The translations under genes and the position numbers were made by a program. A DNA stretch of 64,000 nucleotides from NCBI GenBank assembly GCA_900548385.1, contig URKJ01000012.1:24101-88100 (forward strand). The letters are read 5' to 3'. Below are positions 8,990-30,611 of this stretch, piece by piece. A model generated the notes under the pieces. It did no database searches, was not told the origin of the DNA, and saw nothing but the letters and a program-made list of their open reading frames with translations. This DNA comes from an uncultured bacterium. Lineage in GTDB: Bacteria; Verrucomicrobiota; Lentisphaeria; Victivallales; UBA1829. Position 1 is the first letter of the stretch, and every line of letters starts with the position of its first letter.

Positions 8990-9718
8990 TCAATTATATG
9001 GCATCCAGTTTTTCTGCTTCGCCGGCAGCCATTGCTGACTGACGGTGTAATGGTCGTGAGAGCCGACGTGTCCATCGAAAAACAGAACGTTTGCCCGGTT
9101 GTTGTGGGAATAAGCGACACCGCCCTGTTCCGGATTGTTTTCCGGATTGACCCAGTATGCAATATCCCATTTCCCTTCCGAATTGGTGGAGTTTGCCTTG
9201 CCGCGTGTTTCGATCCATTGGAGTTTGGAAGAGGGATTTTTCACTTTCCGCAGGTGCATTGCTTTATAGCCGTTCTGCAGGGTGGCTTGGGAGCAGTTGA
9301 TCGCATAGAAGCTGATCCGTACGGTTCCGATGTATCTCGCCCATACTCCGACAGTGGCTCCGTTATATTCATTACATTTCCAACGTTCGATTTGCGGACA
9401 GAGCACTTTTTTCGGTACCCATGTGGCTGCCCAGTCGTTTTTGTTGAGAAGCATCCGGATGAAGTGCAGGGTATGCGTACCGGTGTTGTACCAGGGGGAA
9501 CCGCCGCTGCCATCAATGTTCGGAAACATCACGTCTTCGTTCTCGCTCAGGTACATCGCGGAAACCGTTCCGATGGTTTTCATGTTGGAGGTGCATTGAA
9601 TCGCCCGCGCGGTTTCCCTCGCTTTGTTCAGCGCCGGAAGAAGCATTCCGGCAAGAATCGCGATAATTGCGATTACTATGAGGAGTTCTATAAGGGTGAA
9701 CTTTGTTCTTTTCTTCAT
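8990..9718 (-). CDS. prepilin-type N-terminal methylation-domain protein, H-X9-DG (DUF1559-like) family
   Basis: ORF 8990-9784, with start set at ATG 9718 (RBS AAGGAG). N-terminus [36 protein letters not shown]-terminal [12 protein letters not shown]. Confidence 0.85.
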
Positions 9719-22334: not shown

Positions 22335-22365
22335 AAAACAGATCCTGAACATCCGGATTTTTATG

Positions 22366-22392
22366 AAAACGCGGCATTCCCCGCGTTTTTTT
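22366..22392 (+). terminator. intrinsic terminator after mutS
   Basis: Stem AAAACGCGG / CCGCGTTTT with a 6-nt loop, followed by a T run to 22392. Confidence 0.75.
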
Positions 22393-22394
22393 AT

Positions 22395-22422
22395 TTGATT
22401 TTTTATAAAAGGATGTTATTAT
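22395..22422 (+). promoter_or_regulatory. candidate extended -10 promoter of uxuA-like gene
   Basis: TTGATT (22395-22400), 16-nt spacer ending in TGT, TATTAT (22417-22422). Confidence 0.5.
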
Positions 22423-22463: not shown

Positions 22464-23426
22464 ATGAAATTGGGTCTGATGCTTCCGGTCAACCGGACGA
22501 TTCAGTGGGATGTGGCGGCTCAGCTCGGGGTGGAGTATGCGGTTACGAAAGCCGCGCCGGAGCTCAGCGGATTGTCCGATCCGTCGGATTTCAAGGCGCT
22601 GGAAACCGTGGTGAACCGGTTCCGGGAACGTGGATTTTATCTTTATGCGCTGGAGGGAGACGAGTTTGACATGTCCCGTATCAAACTTGGGCTTCCGGGA
22701 TTTGAAGAGGATATTGAACGGTACCGGCAGATGCTGCGCAATATGGGAAAACTCGGAATCCGGTTGCTGTGTTATAACTTTATGGCGGGCGTCGGCTGGT
22801 TCCGTTCCCGCAACGATCTGCCGGAGCGCGGAGGGGCGCTCACCAGCGGCTTCGACATCCGGGAGATCAGGAATGACGTTCCGCTGAAAGTGACGGAGGA
22901 GCAGATGTGGGAAAACTACACGCGGTTTATCCGGGCGGTGATCCCCGCTGCCGAGGAAGCCGGAGTGAAAATGGGGCTTCACCCGGATGATCCGCCGGTT
23001 TCTCCCCTGCTTGGATATTCGAGGATTCTGACGAACGCCGATGCCTACCGTCGCGCAATGAGGATCGTTGACAGTCCGTCGCACGGCATAACGTTCTGTC
23101 AGGCGACGTTCCGCGCGATGGGGGAAGACGTATTTTCCCTGATCAGGGAGTTCGGTCCGAAAATTTTCTTTTTCCATTTCCGCGATATTACCGGAACAAA
23201 AACCTGTTTCCGCGAGACGTTCCATGACAACGGTCCGACGGACATGGCGGCTCTTCTGGAGACCGTCTCCCGGTATGCGCCGGACTGCCTGATCCGTCCG
23301 GATCATACGCCGACGATGGCGGGGGAAAGCAATGAGAATTTCGGCTATGCGATGCTCGGCAATATTTTTGCCGTCGGCTATCTCAAAGGATTGCTGGAGA
23401 AAAAACAGGTACCGTCCGGAGATTGA
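22464..23426 (+). CDS. uxuA: mannonate dehydratase family protein
   Basis: 320 aa. The segment IERYRQMLRNMGKLGIRLLCYNFMAGVGWFRSR matches the UxuA signature region (..NL...GI...CYNFMP...W.R). RBS AAAGGAG. Confidence 0.7.
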   Translation: MKLGLMLPVNRTIQWDVAAQLGVEYAVTKAAPELSGLSDPSDFKALETVVNRFRERGFYLYALEGDEFDMSRIKLGLPGFEEDIERYRQMLRNMGKLGIRLLCYNFMAGVGWFRSRNDLPERGGALTSGFDIREIRNDVPLKVTEEQMWENYTRFIRAVIPAAEEAGVKMGLHPDDPPVSPLLGYSRILTNADAYRRAMRIVDSPSHGITFCQATFRAMGEDVFSLIREFGPKIFFFHFRDITGTKTCFRETFHDNGPTDMAALLETVSRYAPDCLIRPDHTPTMAGESNENFGYAMLGNIFAVGYLKGLLEKKQVPSGD

Positions 23427-23450
23427 CAAAACCGGAGAACATGCTATATT
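23423..23450 (+). promoter_or_regulatory. strong extended -10 promoter driving the structured leader
   Basis: TTGACA (23423-23428, overlapping the uxuA stop), 16-nt spacer ending in TGC, TATATT (23445-23450). Confidence 0.6.
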
Positions 23451-23515
23451 ATTCCGACTGCGGCATACAGGATGCCGCAGATGTTGTTTGACATTCCGTT
23501 ACTATTTCAGCAAAA

Positions 23516-23699
23516 GCACTGAAAACCGACCAAGTTAAAAAGTTGTTTGCTGTCACAAGGGATGCTTATTGTCCGGATTTTTGCCAGTATATACGCCCGG
23601 ATTCCATCCCGTTGAAATGGCCCCGGAGTTTGTGTTGTTCACAAACTTAGCCGGGCGCTTCTTCGTGTGACAGCGGGTTCTTGGTCGGACCTTCAGTGC
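23516..23699 (+). ncRNA. 184-nt highly structured RNA element (three-way junction, family unassigned; 6S-like size or novel leader/riboswitch)
   Basis: Interrupted 26-bp basal stem: 23516-23523/23692-23699, 23526-23534/23680-23688 and 23549-23557/23666-23674. Two inner hairpins: 23559-23564/23605-23610, and 23622-23634/23640-23655. Strand is inferred from the upstream promoter. Confidence 0.45.
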
Positions 23700-23805
23700 A
23701 ATGATTTGAAGCGTTCGGCTTTTTTCATCATTCCGCCGGTCCGGCGTTCCGCGATCGGGATTGTTTGTTGAGTGTTTACGGAATCAACAGGCATGGAGGA
23801 TTTTG

Positions 23806-25707
23806 ATGAATACTGATACCGCTGTTCAACGGGGGAATATGCCGGAAAAAACGTCTGCATTCCGGGAGGAACGTTTTTCCGTCACAGTTCCGTTCCAGCC
23901 GTTCTCCGGAGTGGAAACGGATCGTTTTCCGGCTGTTTCCATTTTGATTCCCACTTACGAACGCAAGTCTTTGCTGAAAGAGACTCTTGCCACGGTATTG
24001 AAACAGTCGTTTCAGGATTTTGAGATCATTGTGCTTGATGACGGTTCGCGTGAGCGGCCTGACCGTGAAATTTGTGAAATCGCCGCCGCATTGCCGGATC
24101 CCGACAGGAAAATCCGCTATTACCGTCAGCCGAACAGCGGACCTTCCGCCGCACGGAACCGGCTGCTGACTTTGGCGCGCGGGAGATGGATCCTGTTTCT
24201 GGATGACGATGACCGGATGACTCCGGATATGCTGCAACGGCTGGTCTCAGAAGCGGAGGCGTCGCCGGAACCGGTTGCCGCTTATTGCGGATATTGCCGG
24301 ATTGATGAACATGGGAACTTCTGCGGGATTCCGAATAAAGTAGAGAATCTGCCGTCCGGATGGATCACGGATCAGCTGTACCGGCGGATTTTTCTCTCTT
24401 CCAGTCAGGTTCTGATTCCGCGTGATGTTCTGCTGAAGCATTCGATCCGTTTCCGGAAGGAACTCCGCCTTTTTGAAGATACCGTATTTTTTCTGGAACT
24501 CTCCCTGCATATTCCATTCCGGGCGGTGAATTCTCCGCTGCTCTGCCGCCGCCGGCATTCCGGCAATCTATCCTCTTCGGGAAAGAACGCGGTTCATCAG
24601 CTATATGTCTGGATCTGGCTGATGAGAAAACCGGAATTCGCCTGCCGTCTGACGCAGAAGACTTTAAATGAACGGTTTGCCCAGCTCTATTTTCGTGCGG
24701 CAGGAGAAGAGACGGCGCCGGAACGGAAGATGCGGTACCGGAAGCGTTCTCTGCAATATCGCCGGAGGATGAAGACGGTGTTTTTATATTGGATGGACCG
24801 TCTCCGGTGCATCGTGACCACTGCTGTTCAGAAAACGGTTTTTCAAATCATATGCATCCGGAATGAATTCTGCCGGAAAGGGGGCACTCTGACGGTGTCT
24901 TATTACAGGGATCCGGAAAAAGCGCCGTTGGAGTCATCCAATTTCGGCGACGATCTGAACAGAACTTTTCTGTCGGAACTGACCGGGAAAGAAGTAATTC
25001 CGTATTCGTTCAGTGTCGCTTCCCGCTGTTTTTCCCGTCCCCATTACCTGTGTATCGGTTCGATCCTTCACCGCTGCTCCCGTCCGGGAGCGGTGGTATG
25101 GGGGAGCGGGATGAAATCTCCGGCGACTCTGCGGGGTAAACGGAAACGGATCCGGGTTTGCGCGGTCCGCGGTCCTCTGACGCGTGCCCGGCTTCTGGAA
25201 TCGGGAGTTGACTGCCCGCCGGTTTACGGAGATCCGGCAATTCTGATGCCGCTGCTGTATCATCCTGCCGTTCCGGAAAAGCGGTACCGGATCGGTTTGA
25301 TTCCGCATTTGCATGATCTGCATTATCCGGTTGTTTCCTGGTATGCGGAACAGCCTGGAGTGCACCTGTTTGACCTTCGGAAATATCCGCGGTGGCGGCA
25401 GTTCGTGGATGAACTTTTAAGTTGTGAAATGGTTCTTTCCTCTTCGCTGCATGGGTGCATTCTTGCGGATGCTTACGGCATTCCGAATTTGCAGGTGAAA
25501 TTTGTTGCGGATCTGGAACGGGAAAACTTCAAATTTGAAGATTATCATCTCTCCTGCCGGGCTTCCGTTCCGGTTCCGCTGGATCTGGGGTATGCGGACC
25601 GGACGGTTGAAGAACTGGCGGCGATGAAAACGGAATGGGTGCCGCCTGTATTCGATCGTGAAAGTCTGATGAAAGCGGCTCCGTTTCCGTTGAACATTCC
25701 GCGATAA
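23806..25707 (+). CDS. fusion protein: family-2 glycosyltransferase (N-terminal) + polysaccharide pyruvyl transferase (C-terminal)
   Basis: ORF 23761-25707, with start set at ATG 23806 (RBS GGAGGA). GT2 block VSILIPTYERKSLLKETLATVLKQSFQDFEIIVLDDGS. Pyruvyl-transferase blocks SSNFGDDLN, IGSIL, VWGSGM, VRGPLT. Confidence 0.7.
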   Translation: MNTDTAVQRGNMPEKTSAFREERFSVTVPFQPFSGVETDRFPAVSILIPTYERKSLLKETLATVLKQSFQDFEIIVLDDGSRERPDREICEIAAALPDPDRKIRYYRQPNSGPSAARNRLLTLARGRWILFLDDDDRMTPDMLQRLVSEAEASPEPVAAYCGYCRIDEHGNFCGIPNKVENLPSGWITDQLYRRIFLSSSQVLIPRDVLLKHSIRFRKELRLFEDTVFFLELSLHIPFRAVNSPLLCRRRHSGNLSSSGKNAVHQLYVWIWLMRKPEFACRLTQKTLNERFAQLYFRAAGEETAPERKMRYRKRSLQYRRRMKTVFLYWMDRLRCIVTTAVQKTVFQIICIRNEFCRKGGTLTVSYYRDPEKAPLESSNFGDDLNRTFLSELTGKEVIPYSFSVASRCFSRPHYLCIGSILHRCSRPGAVVWGSGMKSPATLRGKRKRIRVCAVRGPLTRARLLESGVDCPPVYGDPAILMPLLYHPAVPEKRYRIGLIPHLHDLHYPVVSWYAEQPGVHLFDLRKYPRWRQFVDELLSCEMVLSSSLHGCILADAYGIPNLQVKFVADLERENFKFEDYHLSCRASVPVPLDLGYADRTVEELAAMKTEWVPPVFDRESLMKAAPFPLNIPR

Positions 25708-25787
25708 AGGCGGTGTTTGCCGTTTTCTGCAACGGCTTCCTATTGAAAAAGATAAGGCTCGAAACAGGAAGTTTTGATGCCGCTTCA

Positions 25788-25815
25788 TTGATTTTTTGGA
25801 AAATGATGCTATATT
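25788..25815 (+). promoter_or_regulatory. candidate extended -10 promoter of ptsH-ptsI
   Basis: TTGATT (25788-25793), 16-nt spacer ending in TGC, TATATT (25810-25815). Confidence 0.55.
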
Positions 25816-25856
25816 ATCCGGCATTGATTCCGACTAAAACAGGAAAGGGATGCCGG

Positions 25857-30535: not shown

Positions 30536-30611
30536 GAGTCGGTAGCTCAGTCGGTAGAGCATCGCCCTTTTAAGGCGGTGGTCCCGGGTTCGAGCCCCGG
30601 CCGACTCACCA
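30536..30611 (+). tRNA. tRNA-Lys (anticodon UUU), CCA encoded
   Basis: Cloverleaf read by eye. Acceptor GAGTCGG/CCGACTC, D arm GCTC-AGTCGGTA-GAGC, anticodon loop CTTTTAA, T arm CCGGG-TTCGAGC-CCCGG, discriminator A plus CCA. Confidence 0.93.

Follow-up and report, generated by a model that had tools for sequence, protein, structure and literature searches.

What is the role of the conserved stretch that separates uxuA from a gene whose product combines a GT2 domain with a polysaccharide pyruvyl-transferase domain in a human-gut member of the Victivallales? Lentisphaerota/Victivallales are common in the human gut and almost unstudied, and to our knowledge next to nothing is known of their gene regulation. 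The original prediction, made on a 64-kb stretch of DNA (the window), left two options: a novel cis-regulatory leader or riboswitch, or an independent structured sRNA. Our analysis leads us to propose tentatively, with a little under even confidence, that the region is the ~350-nt 5' leader of the GT2/pyruvyl-transferase mRNA and that its core acts as a cis transcription attenuator. The promoter match, fold, conservation, strand, gene linkage and competing pairings are directly grounded, and we take them up in turn. The outer features of the region are as follows:

23423..23450, + strand: sigma-70-type promoter (-35 TTGACA, 16-nt spacer, extended -10 TGcTATATT)
23458..23480, + strand: 5'-terminal hairpin, a perfect 9 bp, -14.7 kcal/mol
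23726..23805, + strand: less conserved 3' part of the leader, with a G+C hairpin at ~23736-58 and an RBS-proximal hairpin at 23762-93
23806..25707, + strand: GT2/pyruvyl-transferase (GT) gene, 633 aa (PF00535, 4e-30; PF04230, 2.7e-11)

The extended -10 promoter anticipated at the end of uxuA is borne out: it agrees with the consensus at 11 of 12 positions, carries the TG extension, overlaps the uxuA stop codon (23424-23426) with its -35 and ranks second-best among the promoter-like sites in 20 kb, with a predicted transcription start at ~23457. Its -10 block, ATGCTATATTA, is unchanged across all four lineages compared; the same 11-mer occurs once more in the window, in the HPr promoter at 25806. 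No promoter-like site was found between the U-run that closes the core and the GT start; the element lies between the promoter at 23423-50, the only such site, and the gene. The perfect 9-bp hairpin expected next to the start is likewise present and may serve as the uxuA terminator as well. Its sequence is variable, with strain SNPs that are mainly C->U facing G, and a different hairpin (AAUGCA/UGCAUU) occupies the same place in the related locus L013. Its loop AUACAGGAUGC may recall the GGA motifs of CsrB-type CsrA sponges, in which such motifs are repeated in hairpin loops; the loop is not conserved in L011 or L013. Canonical intrinsic terminators are in use in this genome, e.g., at 22365-90 after mutS. 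At the other end, the less conserved 3' part of the leader includes a conserved block, UUGUUUGUUGA, at 23761-71, and the 6-bp hairpin placed before the RBS by the original prediction is found (UGUUGA/UCAACA, 23766-23789); the RBS itself, GGAGG at 23795-99, precedes the ATG at 23806. The sequence GGAUUGUU...CAGGCA at 23758-97 may recall a BglG-family RAT target, the consensus of which overlaps a terminator; here there is no overlap with a terminator.

Between these outer features lies the core, which folds into a three-way junction closed by a long rod:

23516..23557, + strand: 5' strands of the rod (P1a 23516-23, P1b 23526-34, P1c 23546-57)
23559..23610, + strand: hairpin A, the variable arm of the junction, with a conserved apical loop
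23614..23664, + strand: hairpin B, -22.7 kcal/mol, whose 3' arm (23649-61) doubles as the 5' arm of an alternative pairing, T1
23666..23699, + strand: 3' strands of the rod (P1c 23666-77, P1b 23680-88, P1a 23692-99)

The minimum-free-energy (MFE) fold of the 184-nt element 23516-23699 is the very junction that had been described. The shuffling check suggested at the time, when run, gave -79.5 kcal/mol for the element and, on average, -50.7 for its shuffles (z = -7.41), none of the 200 being as stable; a longer 274-nt segment also folds beyond its shuffles (z = -6.3), and in the most distant homologue the lowest-energy structure again has this core fold. The perfect arms of 8, 9 and 9 bp (23516-23/23692-99, 23526-34/23680-88 and 23549-57/23666-74) are as first reported, but the third helix actually grows to 12 bp via three U.G pairs, and the fold comprises 60 pairs rather than ~50. 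The closing rod P1a/b/c is thus an interrupted 29-bp helix (8+9+12), of which the P1a/b part alone contributes -26.5 kcal/mol. The largest internal loop, in both the MFE and the alignment consensus, measures 11 x 2 nt, with an A-rich 11-nt loop at 23535-45 between the 5' strands of P1b and P1c. The reverse strand gives as strong a fold (z = -7.67), so that the fold statistic by itself carries no strand information.

The U-run downstream of the junction proved more informative than the weak hairpin followed by TTTTTT that had been predicted there. The U6 run is present at 23720-23725, but the arm before it really belongs to two stronger alternative terminators, T1 and T2. These competing pairings, along with a short upstream ORF, had been overlooked. 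Two further features are required here:

23506..23514, + strand: segment UUCAGCAAA, with two partners, 23546-52 (helix X) or 23764-72 (helix P0)
23708-20 (within 23706..23725), + strand: shared terminator 3' arm GAAGCGUUCGGCU, then the U-run at 23720-25

T1 consists of 13 contiguous pairs between 23649-61 and the shared arm (duplex -22.3 kcal/mol), a run as long being found in 0.25% of 20,000 shuffles. T2 pairs 23683-96 with 23706-20 in a 14-bp stem around a 9-nt loop (-15.7 kcal/mol), after which five U stay unpaired; 18 of 2000 shuffles do as well. The segment 23683-96 is common to P1a/b and T2, just as 23649-61 is common to hairpin B and T1. In constrained folds, blocking 23481-23536 brings T2 into the MFE, and blocking 23506-57 brings in T1. 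The leader displays two sequence features of an intrinsic-terminator attenuator: a G+C-rich hairpin directly before a U-tract, and an antiterminator that uses some of the same nucleotides, so that only one of the two can form at a time; the rod is read as the antiterminator, given that the 5' arm of T2 is sequestered in its 3' strands. The helices X and P0 (-8.4 kcal/mol each) are not significant individually; both are paired in every lineage checked, with a U.G of P0 becoming U-A in L013, where the extensions of this long-range helix are broken. Going by the pairing itself, helix X would hold back the 5' strand of the rod, and P0 might conceivably form.

The pattern of substitutions indicates which of these features are maintained. 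Over 245 nt (23481-23725), the core is 91% identical to L013, compared with 46-64% at third-codon positions and ~83% nucleotide identity in housekeeping genes; the comparison with L011 gives 99.2% in the core and ~78% at third-codon positions. Judged by these comparisons, the core is under purifying selection as a strongly conserved folded RNA. Within it, 11 substitutions fall in the 64 unpaired positions and 8 in the 120 paired ones, six of the latter in hairpin A, which takes most of the substitutions together with both 1-nt insertions and refolds in L013, where it gains a 5-bp helix (CUGUA/UGCAG). Junction and loop nucleotides are constant. The stems of hairpin B do not vary either, L013 changing its apical loop only, and the 5' strands of the rod are constant over 19 distinct sequences save for a C->U at 23531, where a U.G pair results. 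All 36 copies have the same terminator arm and U-run, with variable sequence just downstream. On the + strand, and not on the other, wobble preserves pairing at each position changed in the P1, T1, T2, X and P0 helices; position 23691, the site of a C->U SNP, has no partner in the rod state and forms a U.G in T2. These wobble-type substitutions assign the RNA to the + strand. Conservation in related lineages, which had been named as a check, thus holds, but covariation was not found: no helix has a compensatory double change among the 3-4 lineages compared, so that the structure rests on thermodynamics and on wobble-type changes in these lineages. Two other readings of the core were rejected. 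A minus-strand RNA has neither promoter nor terminator, and the C->U and G->A changes would create A.C mismatches in it; a protein-coding core is incompatible with two separate 1-nt insertions in L011/L020, others in L013 and ORFs of at most 35 codons.

The same observations bear on two explanations that dispense with a switch. Long stems with small internal loops are known substrates of RNase III, and an 8+9+12 bp duplex of this kind between two same-strand genes could be an RNase III-type site that separates the GT message or sets its half-life; as this would leave unexplained the conserved terminator arm and U-run, the two alternative pairings and the conservation of loops and junction, we consider such a processing or stability element improbable. 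Still less probable, to the point of being a marginal option, is an element acting as DNA, such as a miniature inverted-repeat transposon, a recombination site or a single-strand origin. The equal folding of both strands and the position at the edge of a strain-variable block would suit it, but wobble accommodates all helix substitutions on the + strand alone, the boundaries of deletion and replacement do not lie at the inverted repeats, neither the window nor any fetched locus has a second copy (the one assembly testable has a single one), and nothing similar turned up in phage and plasmid collections or in viral contigs. A repeat or mobile element of the MITE or REP type was likewise rejected, dispersed copies not having been found.

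How widely is the element distributed, and what does it travel with? It is known from three closely related species only. A scan of 185,579 species genomes returned one true match and 4 chance matches, the single-copy status being established from the one related assembly so matched; the JGI metagenomes gave one match. The loci fetched from PtsI relatives (85-88% and 79% identity) lack it at that position, and it is missing at this locus in L025 and in L023/L024, the latter two belonging to the species of L013; since these syntenic relatives are without the element, they provide no covariation data set. Rfam 15 (4227 covariance models), run over the whole window at the gathering score, recovered only a tRNA elsewhere, and permissive filters over 23350-23900 at E<=10 yielded only the chance-level mir-7927 (E 0.44) and DdR1 (E 7.4), in agreement with the initial failure to recognize any known riboswitch signature. 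A 2010 list of 104 candidate RNAs (PMC2864571) includes the Lentisphaerae motif Acido-Lenti-1 (RF01687, in Rfam), which does not match the element, and a full-text literature search produced nothing beyond that list.

The likeness to 6S RNA that had been raised fails on these grounds. In 6S RNA, the rod is interrupted by a large central bubble in imitation of an open promoter, and the molecule is a housekeeping, lineage-wide one. The 184-nt length and the long end-to-end closing stem do resemble it. In contrast, the element has a branched interior, i.e., a three-way junction without a central bubble, matches neither RF00013 (at E<=10) nor the 6S-Flavo model, was found in only three close species and is strain-variable at its locus, being missing from same-species strains, which is not the behavior of a housekeeping RNA. 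A 6S-like RNA that binds RNA polymerase is thus largely refuted, and we accord it a negligible chance.

The GT gene itself varies between strains, and its orthologues form only three clusters among 5.8 billion proteins. L013 and L023 have flanks that are 99% identical and differ by a 2433-nt block made up of the promoter, the leader and GT; by this comparison, the presence of the element at this locus follows that of the GT gene in one species. In another arrangement, found at 7 of 13 loci in one species, the leader stands alone: this allele lacks positions 23780 onward, and the GT deletion in it is recent. Being widespread, it indicates that the leader can persist without its presumed target. 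This allele is one of several observations compatible with the second option of the original prediction, an independent trans-acting sRNA of ~245-270 nt that ends at the U-run, with GT expressed only through terminator leakage. Such an RNA would have a strong conserved promoter of its own, a constant terminator arm and U-run, and highly conserved loops, not stems alone. However, the stable fold leaves only a 5-bp hairpin of -4 kcal/mol before the U-run; with no strong terminator there, transcription should continue into the gene. Moreover, GT has no separate promoter that we could find, the element is absent at the locus from same-species strains without the gene, and it was found in only three close species, in single copy in the one assembly testable by the scan. 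We therefore hold the sRNA to be unlikely. The cis-regulatory leader, on the other hand, is supported by its placement, its conservation, its linkage to GT and its terminator/antiterminator layout.

Returning to the attenuator, we infer from the sequence that transcription would terminate at the U-run and that this would be regulated, and we advance the following mechanism. The two ends of the core would pair into the 29-bp interrupted rod that closes the three-way junction. With the rod formed, the 13 nt before the U-run would be limited to the 5-bp hairpin, and polymerase would read into the gene, the default state being ON. If the 5' strand of the rod were blocked, the freed 23683-96 could pair with 23706-20 to form the T2 terminator beside the U-run; if the whole rod were open, the 3' arm of hairpin B could pair with the same segment 23708-20 as the T1 terminator. 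Either would stop transcription before GT (OFF). As the rod forms first and exceeds the terminator state in stability by ~15 kcal/mol, the switch would need an active blocker. Candidates are: (i) a ribosome on the upstream ORF, whose stop lies inside P1a; (ii) the upstream segment UUCAGCAAA via helix X; (iii) a protein; (iv) a small ligand acting on the junction.

The last of these candidates touches on the riboswitch label given originally, which is not supported: no ligand pocket, covariation or known class was found. A metabolite-sensing riboswitch would have a ligand (e.g., PEP, a nucleotide sugar or a second messenger) at the junction shifting the balance between rod and terminator, and the overlap of the terminator 5' arms with the 3' strands of the closing helix and of the third arm, as well as the constant junction and loop nucleotides, would be in keeping with it. 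Nevertheless, a 29-bp closing helix, with -26.5 kcal/mol in P1a/b, is far too stable for ligand dependence, and the narrow distribution and the single gene that follows also speak against a riboswitch, which we regard as quite unlikely.

The first candidate, in contrast to the earlier statement that no ORF with an RBS is present, involves a putative ORF of the window species:

23481..23522, + strand: upstream ORF MLFDIPLLFQQKH followed by a stop, 13 codons (ATG 23481, stop 23520-22)

This ORF stands behind an AGGA 8 nt upstream, which is found in the window species only, the Shine-Dalgarno (SD) sequence being absent in L013; it begins MLFDIP and ends with a UGA inside the 5' strand of P1a. The L013 version is MLFDIP followed by a stop, and the three other differences that it has, in codons 2 and 4, leave the amino acids unchanged; in L020/L032, a 1-nt insertion follows codon 6. 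Accordingly, the length among homologues is 6, 13 or 45 codons, with codons 1-6 conserved. A run of regulatory codons is absent from the ORF, and ~200 nt separate its stop from the terminator, a distance that is awkward for ribosome-polymerase coupling. A fuller version of the attenuator, namely a new leader class of gut Victivallales in which a rod antiterminator and a two-partner terminator arm, set by an MLFDIP-arrested ribosome or by a ligand or protein, control a surface-glycan enzyme, is doubtful as a whole.

The element is a well-defined, testable candidate for RNA control of a surface-polysaccharide-modifying enzyme that is gained and lost between strains; strain-variable surface-glycan traits usually matter in interactions with phages and hosts. 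Were the switch true, it would represent a new leader architecture, in which the antiterminator is a very stable rod and the terminator arm has a choice of two partners, and perhaps a new arrest peptide or ligand sensor too; were it untrue, the element would still be a conserved RNA meriting an entry in an RNA family database.

Against the backdrop of known systems, the leader shares with the trp and pyrBI attenuators and with pbuE-type riboswitches a U-tract terminator that takes its 5' arm from the 3' strand of a competing upstream helix. The putative short ORF of the window species, which ends inside the competing helix, is as in classical attenuators, from which the leader differs in that this ORF is of variable length and lacks a regulatory codon run. 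The three-way junction closed by the competing helix is like that of ON-type riboswitches, e.g., the pbuE adenine riboswitch, a closing-helix strand that overlaps the terminator arm being the layout of ON-type purine riboswitches of this kind. Unlike trp, pyrBI and pbuE, it has a 29-bp antiterminator far stabler than the terminator and a terminator 3' arm with two partners, and it bears no sequence or covariance-model similarity to catalogued attenuator or riboswitch leaders. Another parallel is with EAR (the B. subtilis eps-associated RNA), the epsC and wcaG motifs and JUMPstart/ops, the last of these found before variable O-antigen and capsule clusters; all of them, like this leader, are conserved non-coding 5' regions before fast-evolving, strain-variable surface-glycan genes. 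The Rfam models for these motifs (listed in PMC2864571) do not match it, and one gene rather than a long operon follows. The leader is also better conserved than the gene behind it. Taken together, its modeled shape suggests an on/off transcription switch of an uncatalogued type.

The element lies in a leader between a UxuA-family gene and a gene coding for a GT2 glycosyltransferase–polysaccharide pyruvyl-transferase fusion (the GT gene), which is in turn followed by HPr, PtsI and housekeeping genes, the whole series being on the + strand:

22464-23426, + strand: UxuA-family gene, 320 aa, upstream neighbour of the leader region
23423-23450, + strand: promoter TTGACA, 16 nt, TG-c-TATATT, matching 11 of 12 consensus positions
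23806-25707, + strand: GT gene, a GT2 glycosyltransferase domain fused to a polysaccharide pyruvyl-transferase domain, 633 aa, downstream neighbour

The extended -10 promoter of the original prediction is thus borne out as a consensus match and ranks second among the promoter-like sites within 20 kb; a search from the U-run (23720-25) to the GT start codon found no promoter-like site. At the predicted transcription start (23456/23457), strains of the window species (L040, L044, L046, L047) carry 0, 1 or 2 additional A. Upstream, a canonical intrinsic terminator 3' of mutS (a 10-bp stem, then a T-run) is directly followed by the uxuA promoter TTGATT-16-TG-TATTAT, both within 22365-22422; these show that standard sigma-70 promoters and intrinsic terminators are in use in the clade, and ordinary intrinsic terminators are present at other places in the window. 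In one metagenome assembly (L004, 5967-8529), mutS is called as two overlapping ORFs of 693 and 172 aa, as against one 854-aa product, pointing to a frameshift or a misassembly.

The minimum-energy structure of the 184-nt element (23516-23699) is exactly the three-way junction first described from the sequence, at -79.5 kcal/mol against a shuffle mean of -50.7 kcal/mol (z = -7.4; 0 of 200 shuffles equally good). Arms pairing perfectly over 8, 9 and 9 bp form a closing rod (P1a, P1b, P1c) around hairpins A and B, and the perfect 9-bp hairpin at 23458-80 likewise stands; the total, earlier put at about 50 bp, is 60 pairs, with the third rod helix reaching 12 bp via three U.G pairs and the P1a/b duplex alone accounting for -26.5 kcal/mol. 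As the opposite strand folds equally well (z = -7.7), the fold alone cannot assign the strand.

Homologous loci collected via the GT protein and PtsI yielded 36 leader copies (19 distinct) from three closely related gut Victivallales species. Identities to the most distant copy, L013, are as follows:

Core of the leader (23481-23725): 91% (nucleotide)
Neighbouring genes: about 83% (nucleotide)
Third-codon positions: 46-64%
UxuA, HPr, PtsI and prolyl isomerase: 88-92% (amino acid)
GT gene: 69% (nucleotide), 64% (amino acid)

The GT gene hence diverges far more rapidly than the genes around it (64% versus 88-92% amino-acid identity). Against the closer L011, the core is 99.2% identical and third-codon positions about 78%. 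Polymorphism is much higher in the flanks than in the core: about 10 sites vary along 27 nt of the 5' hairpin, and the 80 nt leading up to the start codon are variable too. Within the element, L013 has 11 substitutions in 64 unpaired positions and 8 in 120 paired ones; six of the latter eight fall in hairpin A, which refolds with a new 5-bp helix, and one change falls among the roughly 96 paired nucleotides of the rod and hairpin B. A conserved reading frame spanning the core is excluded by one-nucleotide indels between homologues.

Every substitution in the rod and terminator helices is a transition compatible with pairing on the + strand alone. In L013, G->A changes face U at 23675 and 23772, and a third of this sort, at 23665, is paired solely in the alignment consensus fold; in individual strains, positions 23531 and 23691 change from C to U facing G. 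The 5' hairpin likewise has C->U opposite G at 23461 and 23476, alongside non-pairing changes. Across the 36 copies from three species, compensatory double changes are absent; hence, the structural evidence is thermodynamic and of the wobble type rather than covariation. Taken together, these patterns show strong purifying selection on the element, as an RNA on the + strand.

The original prediction had noted a weak hairpin followed by TTTTTT. The U-run is present, and the unconstrained fold, in which the rod wins, leaves the arm before it with a 5-bp hairpin of -4 kcal/mol; overlooked were two stronger partners of this arm, whose 13 nt, GAAGCGUUCGGCU (23708-20), can pair with either of two segments further upstream:

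23708-20 with 23649-61 (hairpin B 3' arm), + strand: T1, 13 contiguous pairs, two of them G.U
23706-20 with 23683-96 (3' strands of P1b and P1a), + strand: T2, 14 bp, one bulge, 9-nt loop, -15.7 kcal/mol

A 13-pair run reaching the U-tract, as in T1, occurs in 0.25% of 20,000 dinucleotide shuffles, and pairings as good as T2 in 18 of 2000. T2 leads directly into the U-run and, as modelled, is a canonical intrinsic terminator. It enters the minimum-energy fold when 23481-23536 are barred from pairing, as does T1 when 23506-57 are barred. The arm and U-run are invariant in 36 of 36 copies, and the sequence immediately downstream varies. These pairings and constrained folds, the invariant arm and the lack of a nearer promoter point to a leader of terminator/antiterminator layout with a built-in choice: read-through into the GT gene would be the default while the rod is formed, and unavailability of its 5' strand would lead to termination.

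What might occupy that strand? Three candidates present themselves, involving these features:

23481-23522, + strand: short upstream ORF of 13 codons, peptide MLFDIPLLFQQKH, then stop; ATG at 23481 directly after the 5' hairpin, UGA at 23520-22 inside the P1a 5' strand
23506-14 with the P1c 5' strand, + strand: helix X, formed by UUCAGCAAA, 7 bp, not significant alone
23506-14 with 23764-72, + strand: helix P0, UUCAGCAAA with the conserved UUUGUUGAG, 9 bp, not significant alone

The first is a ribosome on the short ORF, which, when terminating at the stop, would mask P1a together with the greater part of P1b. The prediction had denied any ORF with an RBS; in the window species this one has an upstream AGGA. 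The L013 peptide is MLFDIP-stop, and codons 1-6 differ there by synonymous changes only, three in all (codons 2 and 4); in L020 and L032 a 1-nt insertion shifts the frame after codon 6. Conservation is thus limited to codons 1-6, with the later ones free. We infer that this would fit an arrest-type peptide, its ribosome covering 23506-14; against it count the tiny sample and the restriction of the AGGA to the window species. Secondly, this invariant UUCAGCAAA segment might itself hold the P1c 5' strand through helix X; in P0, a U.G pair becomes U-A in L013. Thirdly, a protein or ligand might bind the junction or the 11-nt A-rich loop, a candidate on which the data are neutral.

L013 and L023/L024, with flanks 99% identical and therefore of the same species, differ by a 2433-nt block comprising promoter, leader and GT gene (L013 3235-5667). 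In L023, 102 unrelated nucleotides (9564-9665) replace it, altering also the final UxuA residues, so that uxuA is directly followed by the HPr promoter. The block is also missing from L025, whose PtsI is 85% identical, and in the group whose PtsI identity is 79% the neighbourhood differs. In the sister species, one clean 1978-nt deletion (window equivalent 23780-25756) is common to 7 of 13 loci (L028, L029, L031, L034, L035, L037, L038), drawn from seven separate assemblies (six different sequencing samples and one NCBI genome assembly); six loci keep the GT gene. The deletion takes the RBS and the whole gene and leaves the leader fused to the HPr promoter region. In the window species, leader and gene are together in 10 of 10 places examined, and among 5.8 billion proteins the GT orthologues form three clusters, confined to these three lineages.

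The uxuA-HPr gap is thus a variable locus and the element, at least here, belongs to a strain-variable gene cassette, unlike the core genome. The leader can evidently persist without the GT gene; however, this leader-only allele is a single recent deletion with no time for decay and does not demonstrate independent function. An independent sRNA is a minority alternative. The original observation stands: the element is a functional + strand structured RNA, and it probably makes up the greater part of the 5' leader belonging to a strain-variable glycan-modifying gene. Just two copies of the 11-mer ATGCTATATTA are present in the 64 kb, one in the leader promoter (23441-23451) and one in the HPr promoter (25806-25816). 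The likeness extends, in the window species, to some 30 nt at the start of the leader, which resemble the HPr 5' UTR as far as its ATG (CGACT...ACAGGA...GGATGCCG.GATG). A duplicated HPr promoter, with the cassette inserted behind it, therefore seems to account for the arrangement.

No second copy of the element exists in the window, and phage and plasmid collections held nothing similar. An exact two-block pattern (internal loop and junction), searched in representative genomes of 185,579 species, found one true homologue, in a human-gut 'Lentisphaeria bacterium' MAG, the remaining four matches being without further similarity. A 20-mer from the rod matched a single contig among the JGI metagenomes; a different one, from the rod 3' strand, matched none among viral contigs.

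Two segments outside the element recall known regulatory targets. The 5' hairpin loop AUACAGGAUGC (23465-23476) resembles the CsrA binding consensus, RUACARGGAUGU, and is not kept in L011 or L013. The RBS-proximal hairpin zone (23758-23797), GGAUUGUU...CAGGCA, is similar to the RAT targets recognised by BglG/LicT-type antiterminators, with no terminator overlapping it; the block UUGUUUGUUGA is kept in L013, where its partner arm differs yet is still complementary.

At the gathering score, the sole Rfam 15 match in the whole window is a tRNA gene (30536-30608, 72 bits, between methionine aminopeptidase/IF-1 genes and guanylate kinase); with lax filters, 23350-23900 gave two chance-level matches at E<=10, with 6S and the riboswitch classes absent. 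The element thus matches none of the 4227 families. 6S RNA is rejected on this result and on cassette membership at this locus, which argues against a housekeeping RNA. Of the novel cis-regulatory leader or riboswitch originally suggested, the leader is supported by conservation, gene linkage and the terminator/antiterminator layout; the riboswitch, without an Rfam class, is unproven and less likely because the closing rod is extremely stable. Novel as a motif and familiar in type, the element is confined to a small gut clade.
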